The translations under genes were made by a program, and so were the position numbers. Below the pieces are notes generated by a model. The model was not told where the DNA came from. It made no database searches and worked only from the letters and a program-made list of their open reading frames with translations. This document shows, piece after piece, positions 7,473 through 32,382 of a DNA stretch of 59,872 nt (the first letter of the stretch is position 1; every line of letters begins with the position of its first letter). The stretch covers positions 1-59,872 of the forward strand of contig DASRVA010000183.1 in NCBI GenBank assembly GCA_035687745.1, given 5' to 3'. Source of the stretch: Gemmatimonadota bacterium. Lineage in GTDB: Bacteria > Gemmatimonadota > Gemmatimonadetes > JACCXV01 > JAHWKZ01.

Positions 7473-8108
7473 CTAGAATGACGGCTGGGCGAGCGAGGGT
7501 TCCGAGAGCACCGCCGGAACAAGGCCGTGGTCCACGGCGATTCCCCACAGCTCGCGCTGGAGCAGCGCGCGCGCCCGGTGGAGCCGTGAGCGTACCGTCC
7601 CCACCGGACAGCCGAGCATCGAGGCGATCTCGGCGTACGAGAGATCCTCGACGAAGTAGAGCGTCGCTACCGCGCGGTACTGGAGCGGCAGCGCGAGGAT
7701 GGCGGAGCTCACCTTCTCGGCGTCGAGGCGACTGAGAAACGTGCGCGCAGGGTCAGGATCGTCCTTGTGCATTCCGGCCTCAGCGGTCCGGCCGTAGAGA
7801 TAAAGCTCGGGCGTGTCGTCGATCGACACGGTGGATGCCGCCCTCTTGTTCTTGCGGCAGCGCATGAGGAAGGCGTTGGTGAGGATCTTGAGAAACCACG
7901 CCTTGAAGTTGGATCCCGGCTGGAAGCCATCGAAGCCGCGGAAGGCCAGCAGCGCGGCCTCCTGGACGACGTCCTCGGCGTCGATCGGGTCGCGCGTCAG
8001 GTGAAGGGCGGCCGAGTAGGCGCGCGGAAGGACCTGGTCCAGCAGGGTCTCGAAGGTGCGCCGTTCCGCCGGAGTCAGCGCGCGTCGGGAGCGGGCCGCG
8101 GTCGTCAT
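7473..8108 (-). CDS. ECF RNA polymerase sigma factor (SigH/SigR-like)
   Basis: ATG 8108 (ATGA overlap with the STAS stop). DAEDVVQEA...FQPGSNFKAWFLKILTN (region 2), LSYAEIASMLGCPVGTVRSRLHRAR (region 4). Confidence 0.95.
   Translation of the reverse strand: MTTAARSRRALTPAERRTFETLLDQVLPRAYSAALHLTRDPIDAEDVVQEAALLAFRGFDGFQPGSNFKAWFLKILTNAFLMRCRKNKRAASTVSIDDTPELYLYGRTAEAGMHKDDPDPARTFLSRLDAEKVSSAILALPLQYRAVATLYFVEDLSYAEIASMLGCPVGTVRSRLHRARALLQRELWGIAVDHGLVPAVLSEPSLAQPSF
7477..7503 (-). promoter_or_regulatory. ECF-type promoter GGAACC-N17-CATT, inside the 3' end of the sigma gene, upstream of the heme-binding gene
   Basis: GGAACC ctcgctcgcccagccgt CATT on the minus strand. Confidence 0.65.
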
Positions 8109-8374
8109 CGGGGGTCTCCGTCGGCGAGGATCTCCCGAAGGAGCGGGGAGCACCCCGAGATCTCGAGTCCCTGCTGCTGGAGCGCCTTGAGGAGCCGGAT
8201 GGCCGAGCGATCCACATAGCGCACGCCGGCGAGGTCCAGGCGCACGCTCGAGCCGCCGCCCTGGATCGCCCAGCACTCGCGCTCGAGGAGGAGCGTGTCC
8301 TCGCCGACGATCCGTCCCTCGACCTGGAGGGCAACCCGGTTGTCCTGGCTGGCGATGGGGGTGATGCGGAGCAT
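8105..8374 (-). CDS. Small STAS-domain protein
   Basis: ATG 8374 after GAAAGGAG. VALQVEGRIVG...VRLDLAGVRYVDRSAIRLL STAS pattern. Confidence 0.75.
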   Translation of the reverse strand: MLRITPIASQDNRVALQVEGRIVGEDTLLLERECWAIQGGGSSVRLDLAGVRYVDRSAIRLLKALQQQGLEISGCSPLLREILADGDPR

Positions 8375-8429
8375 GTGGCTCGGGCTCTCCTTTCGTCTCC
8401 GCCGTGTCGCGGGGCCGGCCTTCACTAAG

Positions 8430-8444
8430 GCAGCCCGCGTGCCA
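8430..8444 (-). promoter_or_regulatory. Sigma54 -24/-12 promoter for the STAS-ECF operon
   Basis: TGGCACGCGGGCTGC: GG-N10-GC with an exact TGGCACG -24 box, 55 nt upstream of ATG 8374, just downstream of an enhancer-binding protein gene. Confidence 0.8.
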
Positions 8445-8463
8445 GAGCCCGGGTGGGGTCCGT

Positions 8464-8488
8464 AATGGCCTTTCCTGCAAAGGGTTAC
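8464..8488 (-). promoter_or_regulatory. Degenerate ECF-type promoter GTAACC-N15-CATT (possible autoregulation)
   Basis: One mismatch and a shorter spacer than the 7-site motif. Confidence 0.3.
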
Positions 8489-8531
8489 GACTGGAGGGTG
8501 GGGGACGGACGGGTGTGGCTCGCAGGTCAGG

Positions 8532-8558
8532 CGTTCCCACTATTTCGTGACGTTCCCA
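8532..8558 (-). repeat. Direct repeat TGGGAACG-N11-TGGGAACG, candidate upstream activator sequence
   Basis: cgttccca at 8532-8539 and 8551-8558, about 90-115 nt upstream of the -24 box. Confidence 0.5.
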
Positions 8559-8616
8559 ACATGATGGGAGACGGGCGGGCCCGGGAGCGGACCCGTCCGC
8601 CGCGAGGCGTGAAGGC

Positions 8617-11544
8617 TCAGACGATATGGGGGCGGGCGATCCCCAGCTTCTTCATCCGCGCCTCGAGCGTGGTGGGCTTCAGTCCCAGGAGAGCCGCCGC
8701 GCCCCGCGGGCCGCTGACCACCCACCCAGCGCGGCGGAGGGTCTCGAAGATGTGATCCCGCTCGACCTCGGCCAGCGTGCGATCTCCGTCGATGGGAGCG
8801 CGGATCGCGGTGACGTCGGCGGGCCGCGCGGCCCCGGTCACCCAGTCGCCGAGCTCCAGCCCGTCACCGGCTGAGGTGATGATCGAACGCTCGATCACGT
8901 TCCTCAGCTCGCGCACGTTGCCCGGCCAATCGTATGCCACGAGGGCGTTCATGGTTCTCTGGGGGATCCGCTTCAGCGCCTTCCCGAGCCGCGGTCCCTC
9001 CTTCAGCAGGAAGTAGCGCGCCAGGCTCGGAATGTCCTCGCGGCGCTCGCGAAGGGCCGGCACGTGCACGGGGAATACGTTCAGCCGGTAGAAGAGGTCG
9101 GAGCGGAAGCGGCTTTCACCGACCGCCTCGGCGAGGTCCCGGTTCGTGGCGGCGATGACGCGGACGTCGACCCGGATCGTGGCTGTCCCGCCGACGCGCT
9201 CGATCTCTCCCTCCTGCAGCACCCGCAGGAGCTTGACCTGGAGATCCAAGGGCAGGTCGCCGATCTCGTCCAGGAAGATCGAGCCGCCGTGGGCGAGCTC
9301 GAAGCGCCCCACCTTCCGCGCGGTGGCGCCGGTGAAGGCGCCCTTCTCATGGCCGAAAAGCTCCGACTCGACGAGCCCCGCCGAAATCGCCCCGCAGTTG
9401 ACCACGACGAGAGGCCGCTCCCGGCGAGGGCTCAGCGCGTGGATGGCGCGCGCGAGCAGCTCCTTCCCCGTCCCCGTCTCGCCGGTGATCAGCACCGTCG
9501 CGTCGGTCGGAGCGACCTGCTCGACCTGGGCCAGCAGGCGCCTGAGGCCCACGCTCTGGCCGATGATCTCCTCGAATCCGTGCTGGGTTCGGATCTCCTC
9601 CTGCAGGTAGACGTTCTCCGCTTCGAGGCGGTCGCGCAGTCGGCGCAGTTCCTCATGGGCGAGGCAATCGCCCAGCGCCACCGACACCGCGCCGACCACC
9701 TGCTCGAGGAACGTCCGGCGTACGTTCTCATACGCTCCCTTCTCGGCTGCCATGAAGAAAAGCGCGCCTCGGCTCCGATCGCCGCTGACCAAAGGCATAG
9801 CGCATAGAGACTCCATGCCCTCTTGCAGCATCACATCGAAAGTCACGGGAAAGGACTCGCGGAGCTCGTCCCGCGAACCGGTGATTACCCACTCGCGGCG
9901 CTGTATCACCCAGTCGCAGGCGGTGCCCGCCGCCGGCAACACGGTGGGCTGGGTCGGCTCCGCCTGAGCCGTCCGCGCGATCAGGATGTGTCCCTGCAGC
10001 TTGTCGCCCTCGATCGGCAACTCGATGCCGAAGCGATCCGTGGGCACTAGCGATCTCAAAGACCAGGCCAGCGCTCCGAACAACTCGTCGCGGTCCAGGT
10101 GCCGTCCGATGGCGCGGTTCATGGCGAGGAGGGAATCGAGCTCCCGATTCAAAGCACGGACTTCATCGTCGGCGCGCACTCGCTGGAGCTCGGCCGCTGC
10201 CCGGGCGGTGAACACCTTGAGGACGGCCAGGAGTCGGGGCATCTCCTCCATCGGCCGGTCGTTCATGACGACGAGATGTCCCATGACACGACCCTGGGCG
10301 TCCAGGAGGGGGAGCCCGAGGTAGCTCTCGGCCGACAGCTCGACCAGTGCCTGGTCCTCCGGGAACAGCGACCGCAGCTGACTGGGGTGATAGGCGATCT
10401 GTCCTCCTACGACCGTCTGGCAGGGGGTGCCTTCGAGGTCGTACTCGAAGTCTCTCCCCACCTCGTTCCCATTCCAGAAGGCGAGCGTCCGGGCACGGCT
10501 CCGGCCGGCATCGAGGCACTCGGCGACGAACGCGTAGCGGACGTCGAGGGCCATGGCGAGATGGCGCACTAGGGAGCGGAAGAAATCGTCCCCAGTCGCC
10601 GCCGCTGTCCCCTCGCTGATCGCCCGGAGCGTCCGCTCGCTGCGAACGCGCTCGGTGACGTCGCGGGAGATCGCCAGCAGTTGTTCCGGTCGTCCCTGCG
10701 CGTCGACGATGGCGTTCACGACCACGTCCCACCACATCGGCTTCTCGCCCATCGTCGGGCAGAATCCTACGAACCGGCCCACCCCTCCTCGTTTCGCTTC
10801 CTCCAACGCCCGGCTGGCCGCCTCGCGGTGCGGACCCTCCCAGAAGTCGAGCCAGAAGGTGTTGCGAAGGGGCTCGAAATCGCAGATCTCGAGGATCTCC
10901 ATGCCGCCCTGATTCATGGAGAGCAGGCGGCCGTCGGCGTCGAGGAGCTTGATGCAGTCGCGGCTCGACTCGATCATCCGGGTCTGGAGCTGCTGACTCG
11001 TTCGCTGCGCCTCCTCGACACCCTGCATGTCGTTGAGCGCCTGCTCGAGATCCTTCCGTGTGCGTCGCAGCTCGAGGAGGCTCACCACCTGACGGCTGAG
11101 TGCCCGGAGCACCTGTGCTTGGTGCGGGGAGAGATCGTGCGGCTCGTGATCGATCACGCACAGGGTTCCCAGGGCATGACCATCGGGTGTGACCAGAGGG
11201 GCGCCGGCGTAGAACCGGATGTGAGGATCACTCGTCACAAAAGGGTTGTCGGCGAAGCGAGCGTCCGCTGTGGCGTCCGGCACGACAAAAAGTTCGGAGC
11301 CCAGGATCGCGTGGGCGCAAAACGAGACGTCTCGGGGCGTCTCGGCGGATTCCAGCCCGATCCGCGCCTTGAACCACTGCCGATCGGCGTCGACCAGGGA
11401 CACCAGCCCGATCGGCGTCCCGCAAATGCGTGCGGCGAGCGCGACGAGGACATCGAAGTCGTCGTCCGACGACGTATCGAGGATATGGTATCGCCTGAGG
11501 GCTTCGAGTCGGGCGGATTCGCTGGCGGGAACGGGGGCCTTCAT
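8617..11544 (-). CDS. Sigma54-dependent enhancer-binding protein, GAF-PAS-GAF-GAF-AAA+-HTH (FhlA-like)
   Basis: [47 protein letters not shown] and C-terminal HTH. ATG 11544; the ORF track extends to 11571. Confidence 0.95.
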
Positions 11545-11609
11545 GCCTGCCTGTCCAAGGGCGTAGAGCATATACGATTCCCGAGGACGGCGTCAAATCA
11601 CTCCCCTTG

Positions 11610-11747: not shown

Positions 11748-12524
11748 ATGGATCGCCCTGTCAGCTCGCTCGTTCTCGTCGCTGTCGCCACCCTGTCTTG
11801 CGCCGGGGAACCGGCTCCCGAGGAAACGCCTCCCGCCGACACCATGGCCCAGGCTTCTCCCGCGGCTCCGCAAAGCTTCGCCGTGCACATCGAGAACGTG
11901 TCCACGCCGGCCACGCTCCAGCTCTCGGACGGCACCTCCGCACCGGCGCCGACCGCGCCCGTCCTGTGGGTCGTCCACACGAGCCCGGATCCGATCTTCA
12001 CGACCGGGCAGGCGGACCGCGGCGACGGGCTCGAGCAATTGGCCGAGGACGGCGACCCCTCCGTTCTCGCCGCGGCCCTCCAGGGGGCCGACGGCGTCGT
12101 CGCCGGCGGCTTCGTGAACGTCCCGATGGGGGACGCCGAGGCAGGTCCGATCACGCCCGGCAAGGCCTACCACGTGGATCTCATGGCCGCCCGGGGCCAG
12201 CGCCTGACGCTGGCCATGATGTTCGGGCAATCGAACGACCTGTTCTATGCCCCGGAGGGGGCCGGCCTCGATCTCTTCGACGCCGCCGGCCAGCCGTTCT
12301 CCGGTGAGGTCACGAGCCGGCTGGTCCTGTGGGACGCTGGCACGGAAAGCAACCAGGAACCGGGCGCGGGTCCCGACCAGGCGCCCCGCCAGAAGGCCCC
12401 CAACACGGGCGCCGCCGAAGGCGGAACCGTGCGCCTCGTGGACGACGACTTCACCTATCCTGCCGTGGAGCAGGTCGTCCGCGTGACGATCAGGCCGGCC
12501 GCCCTGGCATCCGGGACGCCGTGA
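11748..12524 (+). CDS. Spondin_N-domain lipoprotein
   Basis: Lipobox TLSC; VLWVVH...[29 protein letters not shown] spondin motifs. Confidence 0.85.
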
Positions 12525-13630
12525 AGGCGATCGCCGTCCGTCCGGGGGAAGCGGGCAGCATCCACCTCGCCGAACTCCCCCCGCCCAGCGTCAGCGACGT
12601 TACGGGGGGCCGCGGTGTCCTCGCCCGGATTCTCCGGGTCGGGGTCGACGCGACCGACCGCGAGATCAACGCAGGCGAGTACGGTGCCGCGCCGGAGGGC
12701 TCCGACATCCTGGTCCTGGGGCACGAGAGCTTCGGCCGGGTCGAGGCGGTGGGCCCCGAAGTGACCGAGCTCGCCCCCGGCGACTACGTCGTGTTCATGG
12801 TGCGCCGGCCCGGAGGGTCCATCTACGACCGGATCGGCCAGCAGGATTTCACCACCGACGACACGTACTTCGAACGCGGAATCAGCCGCCGCCACGGCTA
12901 CCTGACCGAGATGGTGGTCGACGACGCGGACTACGCGATCCGTGTTCCGCAGGGCCTCAAGGAGGTGGGGGTCCTGCTCGAGCCCACGTCGGTGGCCGAG
13001 AAGGCGATCCGGCAGGCGTACTCGATCCAGCGCCGGCTCGGCGTGTGGCGGCCGCGGCGGGCGATCGTGCTCGGCGCAGGGCCCCTGGGCCTGATCGCCA
13101 CGATGGCGCTCAGGGTCCGCGGCCTCGACGTGATCACCTACGCCCTGGCGAAGAAGCCGAACCGGAACGCCGACCTCGCCGAGGCGGTGGGTGCCCGATA
13201 CGTGAGCGCCGACACGCCGCTCAAGCAGGTCGTCCAGGACCACGGCAGCATCGATCTCATGATCGAGGCGACCGGATTCAGCCCGCTCGTCTTCGAGGCC
13301 ATGGAGCGTCTGGGGAGGAACGGGGTCCTGGTCCTCACGGGGATCGCCGGCGGCGACCGCAAGGCCGACATGGTTCACGCCGACCACATCCTGCAGAGCT
13401 TCGTCCTGGGGAACAAGGTGGTGGTGGGGAGCGTCAACGCCGCGCGCGTCGACTTCGAGCGCGGGGTATCCGACCTGGCGATGGCGGAGTCGTTCTGGCC
13501 GGGCTGGTTGTCGCGTCTCCTCACCCACCGCGTCGACGGCCTCGAGGGATACGGTGAGATGATCCGGCTCCTCACCGAGGCGAAGGACGCCATCAAGGTC
13601 TACGTTGAGGTTCGCAACGGTCGCGCATGA
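12521..13630 (+). CDS. Glucose 1-dehydrogenase, archaeal-type Zn-dependent MDR
   Basis: GTG 12521 overlaps the upstream stop. [25 protein letters not shown]...[26 protein letters not shown]. Confidence 0.85.
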
Positions 13631-14469
13631 TGGAACGCCGACTCGGCGATCACTGGCCGGAGTATCTGATCGAAGGGCTGGGCCTGGCCGCCTTCATGGT
13701 CTCGGCCGGCGTGTTCGGGACGCTCCTCGAGTATCCCGGCTCGCCGGCGCGGCAGGCCCTCCCCGATCCCTTCGTCCGCCGTGCGCTGATGGGGCTGGCC
13801 ATGGGGTCGACCGCCGTGGCGATCATCTACTCCCGGTGGGGGAAACGGTCGGGCGCCCACATCAATCCGGCCGTCACGCTGACCTTTGCGCGTCTGGGGA
13901 AGATCGACCCGCGGGATGCGGTGGCCTACATGGCGGCGCAGTTCGCGGGGGGCGCAGCGGGCGTGCTGGTGGTCACGGCGCTCATGGGGGCCGCCTTCGC
14001 GGAGCCGCCGGTTCGCTACGTCGCTACCCTCCCGGGACAGGCGGGACCGGAGGCAGCCTTCCTGGCCGAGGCCGCAATCTCGTTTCTGCTCATGCTGGTC
14101 ATTCTGTCGGCCACGAACGCCCGGCGGCTGGCCCGGTTCACGGGCCTCTTCGCCGGCGTCCTCGTTGCGACCTACATCGCCATCGAGGCGCCGGTCAGCG
14201 GGATGAGCATGAACCCCGCGCGCAGCTTCGCCTCGGCGCTGCCGGGCGGGCTCTGGATGGCCCTCTGGGTCTACTTCACCGCGCCGCCAATCGGGATGCT
14301 CCTCGCCGCCGAGATCTACCTGCGGGCGCGGGGTCGGGATAGGGTACGATGCGCCAAGCTCCACCACGACAATGACCAACGTTGCATCTTTCGGTGCGCC
14401 TACGGGACGATGCCTTCGCCCTTGGGGGATGCGGCGGTGACGGGCGCGTCGTTGAAGGGCGCGCCATGA
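13627..14469 (+). CDS. Aquaporin/MIP family channel
   Basis: [10 protein letters not shown] and SMNPARS (two NPA boxes), 6 TM helices, Cys/His-rich C-terminal tail. Confidence 0.93.
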
Positions 14470-15524
14470 GGATGCGTCGGGTCGGCCCGCGGCGTCTCTG
14501 TCGCGTCATCTACCTGGCGGGCGCGCTCGCCCCCAGCCTGCTTCCCGGTCAGACGCCGGGCGGCGACGGCGGCCTGACAGCGGTCGAGCGCGTCGCCACG
14601 GTCGGGTTCACGGTCTCCGACATGGATCGCTCGGTGGCGTTCTTCTCGGATGTGCTCACCTTCGAGACGGTCACCGACGTCGAGCTCGCGGGGGCCGAGT
14701 ATGAATCCCTTCATGGTGTCTTCCCCGTCCGGATGCGGAAGGTCCGGATGCGGCTCGGGGCGGAGGAGATCGAGCTCACCGAGTACCTAGCTCCGCGCGG
14801 GCGTCCGATCCCGATCGAGTTCCGCAGTCAGGACCGATGGTTCCAGCACATCGCGATCGTCGTCCGCGACATGGATGAGGCCTACCGGAGGCTCCGCGAG
14901 CACAAGGTCGAGCACGTATCCTCCGGGCCCCAACGACTTCCCGACTGGAATCCGAACGCGGGCGGGATCGAGGCCTTCTATTTCCGCGATCCCGACGGTC
15001 ACGTGCTGGAGATCATCTCGTTTCCCGAAGGCAAGGGAGATCCGCGCTGGCGGCAGTCGACGGGTCGCCTCTTTCTCGGGATCGACCACACCGCGATCGT
15101 CGTCGACGACACGGAGAGGAGCCTTCCCTTCTACCGGGACCATCTGGGCTTTCGCGTTGCCGGGGAGAGCGAGAACTACGGCCCCGAGCAGGAGCGGCTG
15201 AACGCCGTGCGCGGGGCCCGGCTCCGGATCACCGGCCTCCGCGCTCCGAGCGGCCCCGGGATCGAGTTCCTGGACTATCTGACGCCCGCCGACGGCCGGC
15301 CGATGCCGGAGGACGAGCGCGCCAGCGACCTCTTCCACTGGGAGACGACCCTCGATGCCTGCGACCCTGGGGCGGTCGCGAGCGGCCTGCGCTCGGCCGG
15401 CGCGGAGTTCGTCTCGGCCGGGCTCGTGACCCTGCCCGGCGACGAGCTGGGGTTTCGGGAGGCGTTCCTGGTCCGTGATCCGGATGGGCATGTCATGCGG
15501 ATCGCCGGCGCGGGATGCGAGTAG
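14466..15524 (+). CDS. Double VOC/glyoxalase domain protein, possibly exported
   Basis: ATG 14466 overlaps the aquaporin stop. VSDMDRSVAFF, FQHIAIVV, FRDPDGHVLE, IDHTAIVV, RDPDGH. Confidence 0.87.
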   Translation: MRMRRVGPRRLCRVIYLAGALAPSLLPGQTPGGDGGLTAVERVATVGFTVSDMDRSVAFFSDVLTFETVTDVELAGAEYESLHGVFPVRMRKVRMRLGAEEIELTEYLAPRGRPIPIEFRSQDRWFQHIAIVVRDMDEAYRRLREHKVEHVSSGPQRLPDWNPNAGGIEAFYFRDPDGHVLEIISFPEGKGDPRWRQSTGRLFLGIDHTAIVVDDTERSLPFYRDHLGFRVAGESENYGPEQERLNAVRGARLRITGLRAPSGPGIEFLDYLTPADGRPMPEDERASDLFHWETTLDACDPGAVASGLRSAGAEFVSAGLVTLPGDELGFREAFLVRDPDGHVMRIAGAGCE

Positions 15525-15624
15525 CGGCCGGGCGGGCACGACGGTAAGGTCGGCTCGGGCGCTGGTTCCTCGAGGGCCCGGGGTCGCGTCACGATACCTC
15601 ATCCAGAATCCCCGCGGAGGCAGC

Positions 15625-17028: not shown

Positions 17029-17105
17029 ATCGGCGCGGGCGCGTGGCCCAGGCCAACCCGACGCGACAGGACGCGGGCGAACCTACCGTCGCGGCTCCGG
17101 ACCTA

Positions 17106-18434: not shown

Positions 18435-18441
18435 GAAATCA

Positions 18442-18470
18442 AGATTAGACTAAGTCCTGAACTAAGTCAA
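18442..18470 (-). promoter_or_regulatory. Toxin-antitoxin promoter TTGACT-N17-TAATCT with tandem GACTTAGT operators
   Basis: Two GACTTAGT(C/T) near-palindromes cover the spacer and the -35; the -10 ends 7 nt before the GTG. Confidence 0.75.
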
Positions 18471-23213: not shown

Positions 23214-25222
23214 GCGCGAACCCTCCGGGGCGCGGACGCGCGAGCCCGGTTGGGCACGGCCAGGAGATCCAGGTCGAGACGCAAGGCCTCGCCGACCGAC
23301 CAGGCCTGGAACGGGCAGCCGCGTGGCGTGTGGGGTGGCTCGGCGTCGGCGATCTCGGAGATGTGGCCGAGACCGGCCGATTCCAGGTGGTCGAGAAGCG
23401 GCGCGAGAAAACGGCGGCGCGCTTCGAGCCGAGCCTGGACGCCGCCCCCCCGCACGCGCACCCAAGCCTCCACGAAGGGACCGAGGAGCCACGGCCAGAC
23501 GGTGCCCTGGTGATAGGCGCTGTCCCGTGCCACGGGATCGCCCTCGTAGTGCGGCCGATAGCCAGCCTCCTCGGGCGCCAGGGAGCGCAGCCCGAGCGGC
23601 GTCCAGAGCCGGCCCTCGACGGCGTCCACGACCTGCCGGGCCCGCTCGCCGTCCAGGACCGGATAGGGGAGGCCCCCCACCGCGAGGATCTGGTTGGGCC
23701 GGAACGTCGGATCCACCGCGCCCGTGCGGCCGTCCGGGTCGACCACGTCGTGGAGCCACCCGGACGGGTTCCAGAAGCGCTCGGAGAATGCGGTGCGCCC
23801 GGCCTCGATCAGGTCGCGCCAGCGCGGCGATCGCGCCGCCCCCACCTCGAGCGCGTTCAGCCACAGCGCTTGGACCTCGACGGGCTTGCCGATCCGTGGG
23901 GTCACGACCCAGTCGCCGATCCGGGCGTCCATCCAGGTGAGCTGGACTCCGGGCTCGCCGGCGGCGAGGAGACCGTCCGAGTCGAGGCGGATGCCGTAGC
24001 GGGTACCGCCTTGGTACCCCTCCAGGATCCGCTCGACGGCGGTCAGGAGCGCATCCCGCTCCGGCCCCGGGATCCGGCGCCGTCGGCGCTTCGCCGCCGT
24101 CAGGTAGTCGTGCACGCCGACCGCGTACCAGAGCGACGCGTCGACCGCATTGAACTCGGGGGCGTCGCCCGAGTCCACAAAGCGGTTGGGTAGCATCCCC
24201 TGGCTCACGGCCCCGGCCCACTCGAGGAGGATCGCGCGGGCCTCGGAGAGGCGACCGGTCGCGAGGCAGAGGCCGCGGATCGCGATGAAGGTGTCGCGCC
24301 CCCAGTCGGTGAACCACGGATAGCCGGCCACGATCGTCCGGCCGCGACCGCGGCGGACGAGATAGACGTCGGCGGCGCGCTCGAGCGGTGTCGAGAAAGC
24401 CGCGCGCCGCTTCCGCTCGCGGTCGAAGGCCCGTCGGGCTTCGACCAGAGGTGAGGACCGGCGGGGGGCCGATGCGCCGTTCTCGGCCGGATTGGCCAGG
24501 GGCCCGACAAGCCCCTCGAGCACGAGCGCGGCCTCGCCGCTCGCAAGATCCCACGTCAGAACACCCGGCGAGGCGAGATCCTCCCGGAAGTCGTGGCCCC
24601 GCGCGCGCTCTTCCGCGTACAGGAAATCCCGATACCAGAGCGGATCGTGGGCGTAGGTCGCGTTGGCACGGACCGCGATCCCGGGGACCCCGTCGTACGG
24701 GCGCCATACCAGGTGCCCGCCGAGAGTCGCGGGCTCGAAGCGGAAGGCGGGGTTCTCGTGATGGAGCGCGTGGTAGTCCCGACCCGAGAGGAGAAGCCGC
24801 GCCACGAGACGCATCCCCTCGGTGGGACGGCGGGCCTGCCACCGGACCACGACGCGCGGGGCGTCATGGACGGCGACGACCTCCTGATCGATCTCCAGCC
24901 CGCTCTCCAGCCGATACCGCCAGCGCGGCCAGGGGCTCCAGGCGAAGTTGACGATCCGCGATGGGCTGTCCGGGACCCGGACGTCCGGCAGGTAGCGCTG
25001 GGCGGTCAGCGGGTGGCGCTCGCCACCTGACTCCACCCAGGCGTCGAGCCCGTTGACGAGCATGTACCGCCCGGTGGGAGGCGTGGCGGCCACCAGGAGG
25101 AGCGCGTGGTAGCGCCGCGTCCGCTCGCCTCCGACCGTCCCCGACGCGAAGCCGCCGAGGCCGTCGGCCTCGAGCCACTCGGCATCCAGGTTGTAGCCGG
25201 GGACGACCGGACGGTCAGGCAC
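23210..25222 (-). CDS. Glycogen debranching enzyme (amylo-alpha-1,6-glucosidase, GH133-like) with N-terminal domain
   Basis: EWLEADGLGGFASGT, TRRYHALL, AGYPWFTDWGRDT, LTWMDA, GKPVEVQALW, YHQGTVWPW, GCPFQAWSV. Confidence 0.93.
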   Translation of the reverse strand: MPDRPVVPGYNLDAEWLEADGLGGFASGTVGGERTRRYHALLLVAATPPTGRYMLVNGLDAWVESGGERHPLTAQRYLPDVRVPDSPSRIVNFAWSPWPRWRYRLESGLEIDQEVVAVHDAPRVVVRWQARRPTEGMRLVARLLLSGRDYHALHHENPAFRFEPATLGGHLVWRPYDGVPGIAVRANATYAHDPLWYRDFLYAEERARGHDFREDLASPGVLTWDLASGEAALVLEGLVGPLANPAENGASAPRRSSPLVEARRAFDRERKRRAAFSTPLERAADVYLVRRGRGRTIVAGYPWFTDWGRDTFIAIRGLCLATGRLSEARAILLEWAGAVSQGMLPNRFVDSGDAPEFNAVDASLWYAVGVHDYLTAAKRRRRRIPGPERDALLTAVERILEGYQGGTRYGIRLDSDGLLAAGEPGVQLTWMDARIGDWVVTPRIGKPVEVQALWLNALEVGAARSPRWRDLIEAGRTAFSERFWNPSGWLHDVVDPDGRTGAVDPTFRPNQILAVGGLPYPVLDGERARQVVDAVEGRLWTPLGLRSLAPEEAGYRPHYEGDPVARDSAYHQGTVWPWLLGPFVEAWVRVRGGGVQARLEARRRFLAPLLDHLESAGLGHISEIADAEPPHTPRGCPFQAWSVGEALRLDLDLLAVPNRARASAPRRVRA

Positions 25223-27920
25223 GGACGGCTGCCCTCCTCTGCGGGCGGGCGCTTGCCGGAGCGCGCTCTCGCGCCAGGTCCATCAGGAGCGGCGCCACGA
25301 GGGCGGTCCAGCCGGTCTGGTGGCTCGCTCCCACTCCCCGTCCCGTGTCGGCGTGAAAGTACTCGTAGAAGAGGACGAGCTCCCGCCAGTGAGGATCCTC
25401 GGCGTAGCGCGCCTCGGCCCCGTGGACGGGGCGCCGACCTTCGGGATCCCGCAGGAAAATGCTCGAGAGCCGGCGCTGGATCTCGCGCGCCGCTTCCTGC
25501 AAGGTGACCCGCGTCCCGCTCCCCGTCGGGCACTCGACCAGGAGCGAGTCGCCGTAGAAATGGTGGTACCGCTCGAGCGCCTCGACGAGCAGGAAGTTCA
25601 TCGGGAACCAGATCGGGCCCCGCCAGTTCGAGTTGCCACCAAAGACCGAGATGTTGGACTCGCCGGGCACGTACTCGACCCTGTACTCGTGGCCGTCGAG
25701 GCTTAGCACGAAGGGCCGCTCTCGGTGGACGAGCGAGACGGAGCGGATCCCGTACGGCGACAGGAACTCCCTCTCGTCGAGGAGATAGCCGAGCACCCGC
25801 TCCAGCCGCTCACGGGTCGGAATCGCCAACAGCCGGTGCCCGTGCCGCTCCTCGCCCGACAGTATGGGGCAGGCGATCGAGCGGGCCAGGTCGGGGCGGT
25901 TCTCGCGGAACCACTCGAAGCGCTTCATGAATCCCGGCAGCCGCGCGAGCACGTCCGACTCCAGGATCTCGCACGCGAACAGCGGCGCCAGCCCGACCAG
26001 CGACCGGACGCGCATCGGCGTACGAACGCCAAGCACGTGAAGCTGATCGTAATAGAAGCCGTCCTGGTCGTCCCAGAGGCCGCTCCCTCCGAGGGTGTTC
26101 ATGGCATCGGCGATGGCCATGAAGTGCTCGAGGAACTTGGACGCGATGTCCTCGTACGCGGGATCCTCGGCGGCGAGCTCGAGGGCCATCGACAGCATGG
26201 TCGCGCAGTAGAACGCCATCCACGCCGTCCCATCGGCCTGCTCGAGGTGTCCCCCCGAAGGGAGCGGCTGGGAGCGGTCGAAGACGCCGATGTTGTCGAG
26301 ACCCAGGAACCCTCCGGCGAAGAGGTGCCGTCCCTCCACGTCCTTCCTGTTGACCCACCACGTGAAGTTCAGGAGGAGCTTCTGAAACGTGCGCTCGAGG
26401 AACAGCCGGTCCCGCTGCCCACGGGGCCCGGTCATTTTGTAGACGCGCCAGCAGGCCCAGGCATGGACGGGCGGGTTCACGTCCCCGAAGGCGAACTCGT
26501 AGGCCGGGATCTGGCCGTTGGGATGCATGTACCACTCGCGCAGGAACAGGACGAGCTGCTCCTTGGCGAATTCCGGGTCGAGCCGCGCGAACGGGGCCGT
26601 GTGGAAGGCAAGGTCCCAGGCCGCGTACCATGGATACTCCCACTTGTCGCACATCGAGATGACGTCGCGGTTGTAGAGATGCGGCCAGTCGGCGTTGCGG
26701 CCGCGACGGCGGCCGGCGGGCGGCGGGGGCTGCGCGGGGTCGCCCTCAAGCCACTGGTCGACGGCGTAGTAGTAGAACTGCTTGGACCAGAGGAGCCCCG
26801 CGCGGGCCTGGCGCAGGACGGCGCGCTCGTCGGCCGTGGCAGCGGGTGGCGTGATCGAATCGTGATAGCGATCCGCCTGCTCCATGCGGGCCTTCAGGGT
26901 GCGGTTGAACGGGGCGCCGAACGGTGGTTCGGCCAGTGCCCTCTCCGCACGCAGCCGGAGCCGGAGGACGGCGGATTCGCCCGGCTTGACCTGCAGCCGG
27001 TACCAGACTGCGGCCTTGGTCCCGGTCTCTCCGGGATTGACCGCGTCCACGACGTCGTCGACCACCGCGCGGTGGAAGGCGTCCTTGACGAACGGGGTCG
27101 GGTTGGGGGTGCTGTAGAGCCGCTCGAGGTTGGTCTCGTTCTCGGTGAACAGGAGCTGCGGCGCCTTCCGGTCCGGCCCGCGGGCGGCGCTCAACCGATA
27201 GCGGCCGAGCTCGGCGTGCTCGGCGACCACGTCGTCGCCCTCCCGCCACAGGTGAGGTCGCTCGGGGTACCCCTCGCCGGTCCGCCCCCACGACCAGGTG
27301 TTCCGGAACCAGATCGTGGGCAGGACGTGGATGGCGGCCGTCTCGGGGCCCCGGTTCGAGATCGTGAGTCGGATCAGGAGGTCCTCGGGGTCGGCCTTGG
27401 CGTATTCGGCCAGGACGTCGAAATAGCGCTCACCCTCGAAGACGCCGCTGTCCAGAAGCTCGAACTCCGGATCGAGAAGCCCGCGCCGGTGGCCCTCCTC
27501 GACCAGCCGGGCGTAGGGGAACTCGGCCTGCGGGTACTTGTAGAGGGCCTTCATGTACGAGTGGGTGGGGGTCGAGTCGAGGTAGTAGTAGCACTCCTTG
27601 ACGTCCTCGCCGTGGTTGCCCTCGGGGCCGGTCAGTCCGAACAGCCGTTCCTTGAGGATCGGGTCACGCTCGTTCCAGAGCGCGAGGGCGAACGCCAGCC
27701 GACACTGCCGGTCGCAGATCCCCAGCAACCCGTCCTCGCCCCAGCGATAGGCGCGGCTGCGGGCGTGGTCGTGCGGGAAATAGCTCCACACCGACCCGTC
27801 GGCGGAGTAGTCCTCCCGAACCGTGGCCCATTGGCGCTCCGACAGGTAGGGGCCCCACCTCTTCCAATGGCGCTCACGGCGCTTGTCCTCCTCGAGCCGG
27901 GCGTGCTCCTCGGTAGCCAA
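25215..27920 (-). CDS. GH63/MGH1-like glycoside hydrolase (glucosidase)
   Basis: TTG start after [61 protein letters not shown]. Confidence 0.88.
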
Positions 27921-28068: not shown

Positions 28069-28332
28069 CTAGGAGGGTTCTTCCCCGGATTCCAGGCTGT
28101 CTAGGAGCCTGCGCACCTTGGCCCTCAGCGTGTCGGGCATCGTGATGCGCCGCAAGGAGCTCTTGATCTCACGCAGGAAGGTCATCTCGAACGCGTACTC
28201 GTGAGCGCACTCCGCACAGTCGTCGAGGTGCTCCTCGACCCGTGCGATCTCCTCCGCGGACAGCTCTCGATCGACGTAATCGTTGAGCCGCCGGAAGACC
28301 TGTTCGCACGTATAGCGACTGCCGTCGATCAT
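28069..28332 (-). CDS. Zinc-binding (ZAS, zf-HC2) anti-sigma factor, RshA/RsrA-like, soluble
   Basis: TCEQVFRRLNDYVDREL...HLDDCAEC (Cys plus HxxxCxxC), MPDTLRAKV; no TM helix. Confidence 0.88.
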   Translation of the reverse strand: MIDGSRYTCEQVFRRLNDYVDRELSAEEIARVEEHLDDCAECAHEYAFEMTFLREIKSSLRRITMPDTLRAKVRRLLDSLESGEEPS

Positions 28333-28390: not shown

Positions 28391-29650
28391 TCAGGCGGCC
28401 ACCTCGGCGGGCGTCGGCCTCGCCGCCGTGGGAACGACCACGGCGTCCTCGACCGAGGCCGTCGACGGCATCCGTTCCGCCAGGGCGGCCGCCCGCTGCT
28501 CCAGGTCCTGCAGCACGTTCATGAAGGCCACGAACGCGTCGTACGGCGTCTCGAAGGGGCTGAAGTAGGCGTGGACGCCGCCATCGTCCCAGTCCTTGGT
28601 CGACATGTAGTAGACGTGGTCGCTCGTCGTGAGCCGTCGCCAGCGGCCGATGAGCTCTTCGTCACGCGTGGCCAGAACCTCCGGTCGCAGTCGATAGAGG
28701 CGCTCGTGGGCGGCCTGCTGAAGACGGTTTCCGAGCCATGCGCTGACGTCGCGCTCGCTGTCGGCCCAGGAGGTCGGCCGCGGGAAGGAGAGCCGTGCGA
28801 CCGGGGGGCGGTCGAGCACCTCCGACGGCGTGAGGGTCGAGAGTCCCCGCCGCTCGAGCTCACCCGGAAGAGCCTTCAGGAACGCGAAGATCCCCGTCTC
28901 CTCCCACTGGTGCTCGCCGAACGTCTCGTAGTCCAGAAAGAGATGGGCGGAGTCGCCCCCGCTGCCGGCGATCCAGTCGGCGTACTTGTCGGCCGTGAGC
29001 GGCCACCCGCTCCAGCCCCGTGCACCGAAGCGGAAGCCGACGTCGTCGCTGAGCCGGTAGTTGCGGGGCAGGATGCGCAAGCTTGGCGCGGACTCCGCTG
29101 CGTAGACGAAGTTCGGCGAGCGCCACCCCAGGATCTGGTCCGCGCCCTCGACGAGGGCGCCCCGGAAACCCAGCCGCTCGATCGTCGAGGCCAGGGGATC
29201 GAAGTACACGAGCTCCGTGTTGCGGAAGACGCGCGGGCAGCCCCCGAACACGCGCGCGACCGTCTGCCGGTGGAGCCGGACCTGGGCTTCGAACTCCTCC
29301 TCGTGCGCGAGCGCCGACAGGGAGTGGTGGTAGGTCTCGCCCAGCACCTCGACGCCGCCCGTCGCGACCAGACCCTGAAAGCTCTCGAGCGCCTCCGGTG
29401 CCTCGGCCTCGAGCTGCTCGATCAGGACCCCGCTCAAACTCAGGGCGAGCCGGAAGCGGCCGTCCGTCCGGCGAATCAGCTCGGCGAGCAGCCGGTTCGT
29501 CGGGATGTAGCATTTCTCGGCCACCCGGCGCACGATCGCGCGATTGGCCTCGTCGTCGAACCAGCGGCCGCCGTTCCCGATGTCGAAAACACGGAATCGG
29601 GAGAGCCGGTACGGCTGGTGGACCTGGGCGTAGAGGACGACGTCAGGCAT
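28391..29650 (-). CDS. Glycoside hydrolase family 57 (alpha-amylase-like)
   Basis: QVHQPYRL, ETYHHSL, FRNTEL, NYRLSDDVGFRF, DYETFGEHQW, TSDHVYYM. Confidence 0.93.
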   Translation of the reverse strand: MPDVVLYAQVHQPYRLSRFRVFDIGNGGRWFDDEANRAIVRRVAEKCYIPTNRLLAELIRRTDGRFRLALSLSGVLIEQLEAEAPEALESFQGLVATGGVEVLGETYHHSLSALAHEEEFEAQVRLHRQTVARVFGGCPRVFRNTELVYFDPLASTIERLGFRGALVEGADQILGWRSPNFVYAAESAPSLRILPRNYRLSDDVGFRFGARGWSGWPLTADKYADWIAGSGGDSAHLFLDYETFGEHQWEETGIFAFLKALPGELERRGLSTLTPSEVLDRPPVARLSFPRPTSWADSERDVSAWLGNRLQQAAHERLYRLRPEVLATRDEELIGRWRRLTTSDHVYYMSTKDWDDGGVHAYFSPFETPYDAFVAFMNVLQDLEQRAAALAERMPSTASVEDAVVVPTAARPTPAEVAA

Positions 29651-30896
29651 GGACTCGCTCCCGGATAGCCTGGGCGTAGGTCTCGGCGGTCAAGCGTGCC
29701 GGCTCGTCCAGACCGAACTGGGGACCGGCGATCTCCATCCGGCCCCGCTCGCTGAGCTCCTGTCGCAGGATGGGATGACGCAGGATGCCGACTACCTGGT
29801 CGGTCATTCGATCGATGTCCCAGAAGTCGGCGCGGAAGGCGTTGCGGACGACCTCGGCCGCCCCCGACTCGCGCGGGATGACGCAAGGGGTGCCGGCCCG
29901 GAGGCTCTCCAGGACGACCAGGCCGAAGGGCTCGCTGACCGACGGCATGACGCAGACCGCGGCCATCCGGAAGGCGCGCTCGACGTCGGGGCCGGTCAGC
30001 CCGCCCGCCACGTGCAGGCGGTCGGCCAGGCCGAGCTCGACGCCGCGCTCGATGATCCGGGGCAGCATGTCCCCGGTTCCGGCGATGACGAAGCGCGCTT
30101 CCGGCACGTGACGGGCGACACGTCCCGCGACTTCGATGAAGTAGTCGGGTCCCTTCTGGCGCGTGACCCGGCCGATGAAGAGAACGACCGGCTCGTCCTC
30201 GGGGAATGGGCTCGGGGGCGTGGACTCGTCGAGCGCCGGACGCTCGTCGATCCCCCACGGGATCACGTCCACGCGCGCCTCGTCGATCCCGTAGCCGCGC
30301 ACGACCTGCCGGCGCATCCAGCGGCTGTTGCAGATCACCCGGTCGGCCGCGGCCAGTCCCTCCCGCTCGCGGCGCTGGATCTCGGGGTTGGCGCCCTCGA
30401 AGGAGCGGTCGTGCTCGGTGGCGTGGAGATGAGCGACCAGGGGTCTCGCGGACACGGCCCGCGCGCGAAGCCCCGCCTCGTACGTGATCCAGTCGTGGCA
30501 GTCGATGACGTCGTGGGGCTCCTCGCGTGCGATCTCCGCGGCGGCGGCGGTGAAGCGCTCGACCTCCTCGAACAGGTTCCAGCCGTAGGGAAGGAAGGCG
30601 CCTCGCGCGCCCGGATCCCCGACCCGCTCCTCCAGGGTGACCGCTTCGGGGCCTGCGTAGGGAAGCAGGGGCGAGTCGATGACGATCCGCCTGAGGCGGG
30701 TCATGCGGTCGCGGCTGCTGACCAGGCGCAGGCGTGGGACGGGGGACCGGGCCGCCGGGAAGGGGACGACCAGCGTCACGTCGACGCCCCTGCGGAGGAG
30801 GCCCTTCACGAGCCCCAGGGTGGCGGTCGCCAGGCCGCCTGCCTGGTAAGGCGGAAATTCCCATCCGAACATGAGCACGCGCACCGGGACTCCCAT
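29643..30896 (-). CDS. Glycosyltransferase family 4 (glycogen synthase-like)
   Basis: VLMFGWEFPP, DCHDWIT, HATEHDRS, QKGPDYF, SEPFGLV. Start set to ATG 30896 because the promoter at 30921 lies inside the longer ORF-track extension. Confidence 0.92.
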   Translation of the reverse strand: MGVPVRVLMFGWEFPPYQAGGLATATLGLVKGLLRRGVDVTLVVPFPAARSPVPRLRLVSSRDRMTRLRRIVIDSPLLPYAGPEAVTLEERVGDPGARGAFLPYGWNLFEEVERFTAAAAEIAREEPHDVIDCHDWITYEAGLRARAVSARPLVAHLHATEHDRSFEGANPEIQRREREGLAAADRVICNSRWMRRQVVRGYGIDEARVDVIPWGIDERPALDESTPPSPFPEDEPVVLFIGRVTRQKGPDYFIEVAGRVARHVPEARFVIAGTGDMLPRIIERGVELGLADRLHVAGGLTGPDVERAFRMAAVCVMPSVSEPFGLVVLESLRAGTPCVIPRESGAAEVVRNAFRADFWDIDRMTDQVVGILRHPILRQELSERGRMEIAGPQFGLDEPARLTAETYAQAIRERVHA

Positions 30897-30920: not shown

Positions 30921-30946
30921 AATGCGGGCCGCGCGGGCGCGGTTCC
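30921..30946 (-). promoter_or_regulatory. ECF-type promoter GGAACC-N16-CATT upstream of the GT4-GH57-anti-sigma operon
   Basis: GGAACC gcgcccgcgcggcccg CATT. Confidence 0.8.
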
Positions 30947-31030
30947 GAGGCTTCTGGGGGCGGGACCCGCGACGGCGCATTCGGTCGCCGCCGCGGGGCA
31001 AGGGGCGGGACGGTTGCGGGGAGAATCGGA

Positions 31031-31450
31031 TCAGGCCAGGCGGCCTACCCGGGACGTCGTGGCCACGGTCAGCGCGGCCGCCATGAGGACCAGATCCTTG
31101 AGCAGGAACTCACCGGCCAGGGTCAATTTCGGGAAGCCCGCCTCGCCGTAGCTCACGGCGGGGGCGATCACGAAGATCGTGAGCGTCCCCACGAAGAGGC
31201 CGGCGACGAAGATGCCGACCAGCGGGAGCGCGACGCCGGCGATCAGGAGGATCGCGGCCAGGACCTCCAGCGCCCCCAGCAGATACACGAAGCCGGCCGA
31301 GGCCAGGAACGGCAGCGAGGCCTCGAGCAGACCGACCACCGGGCTCGGGTCGACGAATTTGAGGGCCCCGATCCAGAGCAGGACGATGGCCAGGCTCAGT
31401 CGCAGGAACGTCGGGGAAACGCGGTTCAGTAGACGCATCAGATCCTCCAT
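31031..31450 (-). CDS. DUF417 (YkgB/RclC-like) membrane protein
   Basis: LRLSLAIVLLWIGALKF...LGALE...GEFLLKDLVL. Confidence 0.8.
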   Translation of the reverse strand: MEDLMRLLNRVSPTFLRLSLAIVLLWIGALKFVDPSPVVGLLEASLPFLASAGFVYLLGALEVLAAILLIAGVALPLVGIFVAGLFVGTLTIFVIAPAVSYGEAGFPKLTLAGEFLLKDLVLMAAALTVATTSRVGRLA

Positions 31451-31495
31451 CTCTCCTCCAGGGCTGGTTCATCCGGCGTTTGATTCGTGAGCCGG

Positions 31496-31521
31496 AATGA
31501 GGGCGGGGCCGGTAAGGTTCC
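31496..31521 (-). promoter_or_regulatory. ECF-type promoter GGAACC-N16-CATT upstream of the DUF417 gene
   Basis: GGAACC ttaccggccccgccct CATT. Confidence 0.8.
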
Positions 31522-31531
31522 CCGGTCGGGC

Positions 31532-32326
31532 TCAGCCGGTGACGGCCTGGGCCAGGTTTCGATAGCTGCCGCCGTCCCGGCGGGCGGCATGCCTCAAGGT
31601 CCCGTGGACGAGCCGGGACGCCGTCCTGGTGCGGGCGGCGCGGGGCGCCGGCCGGGCGGCATCGGCCGCCGCCGGCGCGATCTCCTCGCGGTCGAGGCCG
31701 AGGATCTGCACGGGGACCCAGCCGAACCCTTCCACCGGCTCGGAGAGCCCGATCGCCCTCGCCCGCTTCCAGCTCGGGAGCGCGCGGGTCATCGCCTCGG
31801 TCACCAGCACGTATTCCGGATACGGCGAGGAGTTCTTGAGAAGGCGGTAGGCCAGGATCACCGACGGGCCCAGGAGATCGGGTCGCTTCCCCGGCGTGAT
31901 GACGGTCTCGCCGGCGTGGGCGACGAACTTGAGCCGCAGATCGCGGAGCCCCTCGCAGGCCGAGCAATCGCAGACCCGCTCGGCTTCGATCCGGGCCTGC
32001 TCGCGGACGAAGGATTCCAGGAGCCGGGGGACCGATTCAAGGACGGCCCGTCGCGCCGTGAGCGTGTCGGGCCGGCAGAAGAAGAGGCTGCAGTCGCCTG
32101 TAGCCCGACCCCGCTCGAGCGGCACGTCCGGCGTCCGTGCGACGGCGTGAAGCAGAAGATCGATCAAGGTCTGGGCGTGGAGCAGGCTGATCCGGGGCAT
32201 CCTGAGGAAGCTCGTGTAGCCCCCGATGTCGGCGAGGAGGACGACCACGGGCTCGACGGTGGGCGCCTCGAAGCGCGGACCCGTTGCGGGCGGTTTCGGT
32301 TTGTGGGGTCGGGCCGCTGCGGACAA
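31532..32326 (-). CDS. DUF2652-like protein (class III cyclase-like fold)
   Basis: TTG 32326 after AGGAGGTG. LLADIGGYTSF, GDCSLFF, CDCSAC, LKFVAHAG, LLGPSVILAYRLLKN. Confidence 0.75.
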   Translation of the reverse strand: MSAAARPHKPKPPATGPRFEAPTVEPVVVLLADIGGYTSFLRMPRISLLHAQTLIDLLLHAVARTPDVPLERGRATGDCSLFFCRPDTLTARRAVLESVPRLLESFVREQARIEAERVCDCSACEGLRDLRLKFVAHAGETVITPGKRPDLLGPSVILAYRLLKNSSPYPEYVLVTEAMTRALPSWKRARAIGLSEPVEGFGWVPVQILGLDREEIAPAAADAARPAPRAARTRTASRLVHGTLRHAARRDGGSYRNLAQAVTG

Positions 32327-32356
32327 GTTGATCACCTCCTGGTTTCGAGCCCTTGA

Positions 32357-32382
32357 AATGACGGCTGGCGACCCGCGGTTCC
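32357..32382 (-). promoter_or_regulatory. ECF-type promoter GGAACC-N16-CATT upstream of the DUF2652 gene
   Basis: GGAACC gcgggtcgccagccgt CATT. Confidence 0.8.

Follow-up and report, generated by a model that had tools for sequence, protein, structure and literature searches.

The DNA considered here is a 59,872-bp stretch of a Gemmatimonadota genome (assembly GCA_035687745.1, contig DASRVA010000183.1; the whole stretch is called the window in what follows), in which a gene for a sigma factor of the extracytoplasmic function (ECF) type is accompanied by genes of alpha-glucan and redox metabolism and by a recurrent bipartite motif, GGAACC-N16/17-CATT. Gemmatimonadota rank with the most abundant phyla of soil, and the window was detected in two rhizosphere DNA metagenome runs. 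To our knowledge, almost nothing is known about gene regulation in this phylum, and our literature searches found no sigma regulon described for it. A first-pass annotation of the window had listed seven copies of the motif, named the ECF sigma factor as cognate and the surrounding gene island as its regulon, and pointed to a likeness with the general-stress promoters of Alphaproteobacteria.

A bipartite motif at seven sites of the window

An exhaustive scan of both strands of the window found exactly seven copies of GGAACC-N16/17-CATT (P1 to P7, Table 1), with coordinates, strands and spacers all as first listed. The low chance expectation of the first-pass annotation (about 0.1) also held. 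In 100 dinucleotide shuffles of the window 0.07 matches were expected, the maximum was one match per shuffle, and 0/100 shuffles reached two. An empirical background was taken from 1.9 Mb of control loci that carry distant ECF sigmas (≤44% identity, except for two loci at 53-55%); at 0.026 strict sites per 10 kb, about 0.16 sites would be expected in the window. The identical seven sites, and nothing else, were recovered after each of several relaxations of the pattern: dropping C6, allowing C[AG]TT, NATT, CNTT or CAT as the -10 block, allowing N15-18, or dropping the first G. When the -10 block was written as NNTT, or when one mismatch was allowed in GGAACC, three additional matches appeared per scan, none of them convincingly placed for a promoter. 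A weak motif-like match on both strands, the palindromic GGAAC...GTTCC-like sequence GGAACGAGCGATACCACGGGATCGCTTCC, lies at 46073-46101, where no gene is called, 187 nt upstream of an amidohydrolase gene.

The sites are also placed as promoters would be. The window is 94% coding, and six of the seven sites are wholly intergenic; the exception is P1, which overlaps the final nine sigma codons. Every site is co-oriented with a gene whose start codon lies downstream, at a measured distance of 30 to 111 nt (Table 1), which bears out the 25 to 112 nt first given. Genes were called from the frame bias of third-position GC content together with Pfam matches, and gene starts were set to GTG 30884 for the GT4 gene and to TTG 32326 for the DUF2652 gene.

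Table 1. Positions of motif sites, predicted transcription units and regulatory features in the window
Feature	Position	Strand	Description
P1	7477-7503	-	GGAACC-N17-CATT; adjoins stop of sigma gene; 93 nt upstream of start codon of HbpS-like/cupin gene
P2	11610-11636	+	GGAACC-N17-CATT; 111 nt upstream of spondin-domain lipoprotein gene; in divergent intergenic region common to the gene of the enhancer-binding protein
P3	21821-21846	-	GGAACC-N16-CATT; 35 nt upstream of GMC oxidoreductase gene
P4	28007-28032	-	GGAACC-N16-CATT; 86 nt upstream of GH63/MGH-like gene
P5	30921-30946	-	GGAACC-N16-CATT; 36 nt upstream of GT4/GT5 gene
P6	31496-31521	-	GGAACC-N16-CATT; 45 nt upstream of DUF417/DoxX gene
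P7	32357-32382	-	GGAACC-N16-CATT; 30 nt upstream of DUF2652 gene
P1 unit	6511-7383	-	Secreted HbpS-like + cupin protein ("heme-binding" gene of the first-pass annotation)
P2 operon (predicted)	11748-17028	+	Spondin-domain lipoprotein, glucose dehydrogenase-like alcohol dehydrogenase, MIP aquaporin, two-domain glyoxalase/VOC protein, pyridine-nucleotide-disulfide oxidoreductase
P3 operon (predicted)	18505-21785	-	GMC oxidoreductase, SGL/gluconolactonase-like protein
P4 operon (predicted)	21870-27920	-	GH63/MGH-like hydrolase, GDE glycogen-debranching enzyme, NDH-2-type oxidoreductase
P5 operon	28391-30884	-	GT4/GT5 glycosyltransferase, GH57; followed by the zf-HC2 anti-sigma gene
P6 unit	31031-31450	-	DUF417/DoxX membrane protein
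P7 unit	31532-32326	-	DUF2652 protein
ECF sigma factor	7473-8108	-	211 amino acids; SigH/SigE-like; Pfam sigma-70 regions 2 and 4; proposed cognate sigma
Small STAS-fold protein	8105-8374	-	89 amino acids; stop overlaps sigma start (ATGA); weak Pfam STAS_2 match
Putative sigma-54 promoter	8430-8444	-	TGGCACGCGGGCTGC (-24 GG, -12 GC); 56 nt upstream of STAS start codon
Putative upstream activating sites	8535-8569	-	Two tandem TCCCA-N6-TGGGA palindromes, the second with a degenerate left half
Sigma-54 enhancer-binding protein	8617-11571	-	GAF-PAS-GAF, AAA+ Sigma54_activat (E 4e-72), HTH_8
Anti-sigma factor (zf-HC2)	28069-28332	-	87 amino acids; RsrA-like; last gene of the P5 operon; unnoticed in the first-pass annotation

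P1 to P7 would drive seven transcription units with about 18 genes; operon membership was assigned from overlapping or closely abutting open reading frames (ORFs) of the same orientation. The P2 operon may include one further member, the gene of a PRK-like kinase at 17103-17798. An alpha-glucan/glycogen group in the island is made up of the GT4/5, GH57, GH63/MGH-like and GDE proteins. A redox/detoxification group comprises NDH-2, the pyridine-nucleotide-disulfide oxidoreductase, the GMC oxidoreductase, the glucose dehydrogenase-like alcohol dehydrogenase, the gluconolactonase-like SGL protein, the glyoxalase, the DoxX/DUF417 protein and the HbpS-like/cupin protein; the aquaporin, the spondin-domain lipoprotein and the DUF2652 protein complete the set. 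The island is interrupted between the P2 and P3 operons by genes for a PIN-domain toxin (17806-18207) and a small antitoxin-like protein (18204-18449), both on the minus strand and overlapping at stop and start. The toxin was identified by reading the sequence; its ORF has no Pfam or NCBIfam match.

The motif and the sigma family in related loci

Relatives were collected by protein search and contig look-ups, and the genomic context of twelve members of the sigma family was compared; the loci are given L numbers here. The first-pass annotation had suggested looking for the motif upstream of orthologs, and it does recur there, ahead of the same gene families. In 144 kb of sigma-family loci we found 17 matches to GGAACC-N16/17-C[AG]TT versus 12 in the 1.9 Mb of control loci, that is, 1.18 versus 0.063 per 10 kb, a 19-fold difference in density. 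The consensus of 33 sites in 8 loci, including the window, is (G)GGAAC(C)-N16(17)-(G)C(A/G)TT. GGAAC is invariant (33/33) and the spacer has 16 nt in 30/33 sites, while its sequence is unconserved. Many of the 33 sites share a further conserved stretch past the -10 block, CATT-NN-AGCC (e.g., GCATTCTAGCC and GCATTACAGCC), which may be a start-site or discriminator signal.

The sites of the relatives are co-oriented with, and upstream of, homologs of the window targets. The motif precedes the GH63 gene in L083, L165 and L168. Ahead of the GT4 gene it is intact in L083 and degenerate in L165 and L168. It is also found upstream of the HbpS gene in L081, L168 and L171, of the DM13-spondin operon in both L082 and L083, of Pyr_redox and ABM genes in L083, and of an FMN_red gene in L081. 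Gene order is partly kept as well, with GH63-GDE-MIP in L082, L165 and L168 and the GT4-GH57 pair in L083, L165 and L168. In addition, the motif is found next to the sigma genes themselves. In L165 and L168 it precedes an operon of orf142, sigma and zf-HC2 genes, which suggests the classical signature of ECF autoregulation. In L082 it lies between a sigma gene in STAS context and the directly following type-1 anti-sigma gene, ahead of the latter, and in the window, L081, L171 and L173 it comes directly after the STAS-coupled sigma gene. In L171 the sigma gene is followed by the HbpS-like/cupin gene, as in the window. The P1 block is dual coded, with the -35 and -10 blocks both within the last nine sigma codons (SEPSLAQPSF*); it is kept, including the spacer, in L171 and L173 (83% and 91% relatives), and the sequence past the stop codon diverges. 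Conservation, position and co-occurrence with one sigma family support the proposal that the motif is an ECF-type promoter of a local regulon.

Two further features were seen in L165. At L165:11662-11689 two copies of the motif on opposite strands overlap perfectly (GGAACGCCGGACGGGCCTCGAGCGTTCC); they could promote divergent transcription of the second zf-HC2 paralog and of a gene for a pentapeptide-repeat-like protein of 243 amino acids. Between the DoxX and GT4 genes (about 6845-6925) there is a long inverted repeat of CCTCTCA/GGTAAGAGG-type units, and the unit recurs at about 17480 upstream of the HbpS region. The CCTCTCA/GGTAAGAGG inverted repeat may be an element like the repetitive extragenic palindromes (REP).

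The sigma factor has Pfam matches to Sigma70_r2 and Sigma70_r4_2 and scores 99.9 bits with TIGR02937 (cutoff, 42.9), as expected for the ECF architecture. Its best match in NCBIfam is SigH_actino (TIGR02947), with 123 bits at a cutoff of 251.55, and its best match in the PDB is SigH of Mycobacterium tuberculosis (E 5.8e-27), followed by SigE; SigW is also among the best matches. Since it scores below the TIGR02947 cutoff, is apparently not autoregulated and is not adjacent to an anti-sigma gene in the window, it is not a SigH equivalog. It belongs to a large Gemmatimonadota family, of which the annotated members come from metagenome-assembled genomes (MAGs) of Gemmatimonadales. A tblastn search found only one sigma of this family in the window.

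The recognition helix in region 4.2 of the window sigma reads GTVRSRLHRAR. M. tuberculosis SigE has the same Arg (GTVRSRIHRGR), and SigH has Met (GTVMSRLHRGR); GTVRSR is present in 120/122 members of the sigma family. In Corynebacterium glutamicum, the corresponding residue (R185 in sigE, M170 in sigH) sets whether position -31 must be C, as in GGAAC, or may be T (PMC10012870). The Arg of the family thus fits the invariant GGAAC of the 33 sites.

Two layouts recur around the family sigmas, which have the gene families of the window as neighbors. In type A (the window, L081, L082, L083/84, L166, L172 and L173), a gene for an enhancer-binding protein (EBP) is followed by a small STAS gene and the sigma gene, the latter two overlapping at stop and start. 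Type B (L165, L168 and the second sigma of L083) comprises GT4, GH57, orf142, sigma, zf-HC2, a second zf-HC2 paralog, GH63, GDE, MIP, HbpS and SGL; orf142, which precedes the type B sigmas, has no homolog in the window. A division of STAS-coupled and zf-HC2-coupled sigmas into two clades was considered and rejected, all pairs being 50-60% identical.

Control of the sigma gene and its putative partners

Upstream of the STAS-sigma gene pair the window contains its only match to TGGCAC-N6-TGC, TGGCACGCGGGCTGC. GGCA(C/T)-N5-NTGC is found at the equivalent position in L081, L082, L083/84 and L166; two less closely related loci, L169 (Polyangiaceae) and L170, have it there too. When the intergenic region was aligned with those of L172 and L173 (83% and 91% relatives), the -24 and -12 elements proved invariant at a mean identity of 64%. 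The two palindromes about 90 to 140 nt upstream of this promoter are well conserved in the same alignment, and TCCCAAT/TTGGGA repeats occur in all type A loci (L081, L082, L083, L166, L172 and L173); they are probable binding sites of the EBP. A gene for an EBP lies upstream of the STAS-sigma pair in L081, L082 and L083 as well, and in L170 upstream of a mini-STAS gene. The EBPs at L081:3165-9566 and L083:4068-9581 are giant proteins (1,837-2,133 amino acids) in which Ser/Thr kinase, AAA_16/STAND, GAF/PAS and sigma-54 activator domains are fused. The sigma-54 promoter and the EBP gene immediately upstream point to a sigma-54 cascade driving the ECF sigma. The STAS-sigma operon would then be under the control of sigma-54 and the EBP rather than autoregulated. 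Neither this upstream control nor the STAS partner had been noted in the first-pass annotation.

The small protein encoded ahead of the sigma factor had no match in a sequence search against the PDB and was identified by its fold. Its AlphaFold2 model (pLDDT 89) was matched by Foldseek to RsbV, SpoIIAA and RsfB with TM scores of 0.77-0.79 and a probability of 1.00. The motifs MLRIT, EGR and LDLAGV and a single Cys are invariant among its homologs; the position of the phospho-serine of RsbV and SpoIIAA is not conserved and is occupied by R, G, T, Q, A or N. We propose that the protein is a co-expressed modulator. No description of a STAS-coupled, sigma-54-driven ECF sigma was found in reviews, and the main text of the ECF classification of Casas-Pastor (2021) mentions neither STAS nor sigma-54 nor Gemmatimonadetes. 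Mini-STAS genes were also seen at a greater distance, in both cases behind sigma-54-like promoters. At L169:10001-11025, in a Polyangiaceae MAG and thus outside Gemmatimonadota, the gene overlaps that of a distinct and longer ECF sigma, and an NrsF-like gene lies downstream. At L170:4103-6950 it follows a PAS-type sigma-54 EBP gene with a SpoIIE phosphatase gene just upstream, the only SpoIIE seen.

An anti-sigma gene at the end of the P5 operon was located by tblastn with the zf-HC2 proteins of the relatives. Its product matches Pfam zf-HC2 (E 5.5e-12), and its best match in the PDB is RsrA (E 7.5e-8), with an alignment over the full length. The Cys/His pattern C9...H36-x3-C40-x2-C43 (H36LDDC40AEC43) is kept in the relatives, and the protein has what we take to be all four zinc/redox ligand positions of RsrA. 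Identity is 47-54% with the sigma-coupled anti-sigmas in the relatives and about 30% with the second paralog. By these similarities the protein is the likely anti-sigma of the window sigma. The gene has no motif of its own and starts 58 nt after the GH57 gene, so it is probably co-transcribed from P5. Co-transcription from P5 would create a sigma-dependent negative feedback, as with rshA and rsrA. In the window the two genes are 20 kb apart; an adjacent gene for this kind of zinc-binding anti-sigma (ZAS), together with autoregulation, is a feature of L082, L165, L167 and L168.

Elsewhere in the window there is no second sigma, anti-sigma kinase, phosphatase or rpoN gene. Just outside the island, at 35798-38710 (plus strand), an ORF without upstream motif encodes an unusual 970-amino-acid fusion, with a trehalase domain (PF01204, E 9e-136) at the N terminus and a radical SAM domain (PF04055, E 1e-16) at the C terminus. 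At 47933-53868 (minus strand), two tandem adenylate/guanylate cyclase genes, one of them with TPR repeats, adjoin the gene of a dynamin-like GTPase.

A candidate circuit, its alternatives and related systems

Taken together, P1 to P7 are probably the -35/-10 promoters of a Gemmatimonadota ECF sigma family, whose cognate member is most likely the factor encoded at 7473-8108, acting in a circuit with sigma-54, the STAS protein and the ZAS. In this circuit, the EBP, on a presumed inducing signal, would bind the TCCCA-N6-TGGGA palindromes and activate the sigma-54 promoter. The resulting transcript would carry the translationally coupled STAS-like and ECF sigma genes, and the ECF sigma would direct RNA polymerase to P1 to P7, with transcription presumably starting downstream of each -10 block. 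P5 would also express the RsrA-like ZAS, which would bind the sigma and close a negative feedback loop. By analogy to RsrA and RshA, the ZAS would probably release the sigma on thiol oxidation. The STAS protein, which lacks the phospho-serine and would be made along with the sigma, may modulate the sigma/ZAS step, possibly by counteracting an inhibitor in a stoichiometric way.

What is least certain is whether P1 to P7 are driven by the paralog in the window or by another one elsewhere in the genome. The motif could be a genuine ECF promoter that is served by an autoregulated, zf-HC2-coupled paralog of type B outside the window, with the sigma at 7473-8108 having a different or partly overlapping specificity. 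Several observations weigh in this direction or against the assignment made above. In L165 and L168 the motif stands upstream of the orf142-sigma-zf-HC2 operon, and the STAS-sigma operons have a sigma-54 promoter instead. Since the zf-HC2-coupled sigmas of the relatives appear to be autoregulated from the motif, a paralog elsewhere could share or own P1 to P7. Such a paralog lies between the GH57 and anti-sigma genes in L165, L168 and L083, the last of which carries both paralogs; it is absent at that position of the window, where the anti-sigma gene occupies the spot at which the relatives have sigma and anti-sigma, and it could be elsewhere in the genome. The window sigma operon has no motif, even with relaxed patterns, so that the signature of ECF autoregulation is missing for this paralog, and in L166, a STAS-coupled relative, the 10 kb to either side are free of the motif. 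Coding constraint on the sigma gene confounds the conservation seen for P1 in close relatives, and the Arg/Met position of C. glutamicum is mapped onto the window sigma by way of the alignment with the M. tuberculosis proteins, which makes the predicted fit to GGAAC an indirect one. As for the STAS protein, the window has no GHKL (HATPase-type) anti-sigma kinase and no PP2C phosphatase, and STAS antagonists normally target anti-sigmas of the GHKL kinase type and not ZAS proteins; its role is therefore speculative.

On the other hand, a single sigma of the family was found in the 60-kb window, which otherwise holds the whole conserved island. STAS-coupled and zf-HC2-coupled sigmas do not form separate clades, and with the GTVRSR helix common to both types the same specificity is expected for both. 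In L082 the motif and a type-1 anti-sigma gene follow directly on a sigma in STAS context, and the motif also comes directly after the STAS-coupled sigma in L081, L171 and L173. We regard an outside paralog as the driver of P1 to P7 as rather unlikely. A conventional transcription factor site, another DNA element or a chance pattern is very improbable in view of the strict gene-ward orientation 30-111 nt ahead of start codons, the two short invariant blocks held at a fixed distance of 16 nt by a spacer of unconserved sequence, a geometry identical to that of experimentally defined ECF promoters, the co-occurrence with one sigma family and the shuffles, none of which reached two sites. The proposal that 7473-8108 is the cognate factor thus stands in part: it is favored by the sole family sigma in the window and by the Arg that fits GGAAC, and is weakened by the motif-free operon and the autoregulated zf-HC2-coupled paralogs of the relatives. 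That the island is the regulon of this sigma is plausible from the window and the loci of the relatives.

The likeness to EcfG was pursued as well. The motif resembles GGAAC-N16/17-CGTT, the gene content is stress-like, and EcfG promoters have the consensus GGAAC-N16-CGTT with CATT as a natural, functional but weaker -10 variant (PMC7083833). However, the GGAAC/CGTT architecture is common to many ECF groups (PMC10012870); the motif is generic for several of them and therefore cannot alone indicate EcfG. Neither the window nor 9 related loci have a PhyR-like, Response_reg or NepR-like gene beside the sigma, the best matches of the sigma are SigH, SigE and SigW and not EcfG, and the partner is a ZAS with RsrA as its best match. 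Of the proposed general-stress likeness only the promoter resemblance is left, and membership in an EcfG-type (ECF15) general stress system under a PhyR-NepR partner switch is effectively refuted by the absence of PhyR and NepR; we give it next to no chance. A "general stress" role is suggested by the gene content alone.

The locus offers a precise promoter consensus that can be used directly for regulon annotation in Gemmatimonadota MAGs, and an explicit circuit of sensor EBP, sigma-54, STAS-ECF pair and ZAS feedback that is open to experimental test. The conserved target set joins glycogen/alpha-glucan turnover, sugar oxidation, redox enzymes and an aquaporin and is plausibly a desiccation or oxidative-stress programme. 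The coupling of STAS and ECF genes under sigma-54 would add a new layout to the ECF catalogue, and sigma, anti-sigma and promoter could provide an orthogonal set for synthetic biology. More tentatively, and with considerable doubt, the succession of EBP, sigma-54 promoter and mini-STAS plus ECF sigma genes might be an undescribed, widespread module, present in Gemmatimonadota and in at least one Polyangiaceae genome, in which the STAS protein, produced in stoichiometric amounts with the sigma, acts as a novel ECF co-regulator, a sigma-54 input is set atop a thiol-redox switch, and a phylum-wide stress/glycogen regulon is controlled. In such a module the STAS protein might counteract the RsrA-like ZAS; alternatively, it might assist the sigma as a chaperone or inhibit it. 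If this were true, the regulon would be the first defined general-stress-like sigma regulon of Gemmatimonadota.

Parts of the circuit have counterparts in known systems. The STAS fold is that of the antagonists RsbV, SpoIIAA and BtrV, and the nearest precedent for the gene pair comes from Bordetella, where one locus encodes both BtrV and the ECF sigma BtrS (PMC7498569). The window protein differs in being about 20-30 residues shorter, in lacking the conserved phosphorylatable Ser, in having no RsbW-type kinase or PP2C phosphatase nearby in the window, and in its predicted sigma-54-dependent expression and translational coupling to the sigma. The alphaproteobacterial EcfG-NepR-PhyR system shares with the locus a promoter in which CATT is tolerated (PMC7083833), paralogous sigmas on one regulon and stress-flavoured genes; it differs in its sigma group and in having PhyR and NepR, where the window has a ZAS and putative sigma-54 control.

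The regulatory input resembles that of HrpL (ECF32) of Pseudomonas syringae. The hrp box reads GGAACC-N15/16-CCAC, with the same -35 block, GGAACC, as the window motif. HrpR/HrpS, sigma-54 and HrpL are a precedent for an ECF gene on a sigma-54 promoter under an adjacent EBP (PMC8999054). HrpL has no anti-sigma and controls type III secretion, whereas the window has a ZAS, a STAS partner, a sensor-rich EBP (GAF-PAS-GAF, and Pkinase-AAA16-GAF in relatives) and a predicted metabolic/stress regulon.

The closest relationship is to SigH/SigR with RshA/RsrA (ECF12) and SigE (ECF14) of Actinobacteria. The closest solved sigmas are SigH and SigE of M. tuberculosis, the small soluble ZAS is nearest to RsrA, the anti-sigma gene appears to be under a regulon promoter, and the regulon is rich in redox enzymes. 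The GGAACN-N16-C(G/A)TT geometry is that of the sigH/sigE class of C. glutamicum, where the promoters read GGAACN-N16-CGTT (PMC10012870). Unlike these systems, the window sigma comes from a different phylum, with about 35-44% identity and a sub-cutoff TIGR02947 score, has the SigE-type Arg and not the Met of SigH, and is associated with a -10 block that is mostly CATT and not CGTT/GTT. Furthermore, a distance of 20 kb separates the sigma gene from that of the anti-sigma, the sigma would be sigma-54 dependent, STAS coupled and not autoregulated, and the regulon contains glycogen genes and none for thioredoxin or mycothiol. Promoter and regulon are thus of a known kind, that of a SigH/SigE-type ECF sigma with a ZAS anti-sigma, whereas the proposed wiring, with a sensor EBP, sigma-54, a mini-STAS protein made with the ECF sigma and a ZAS within the regulon, would be new.

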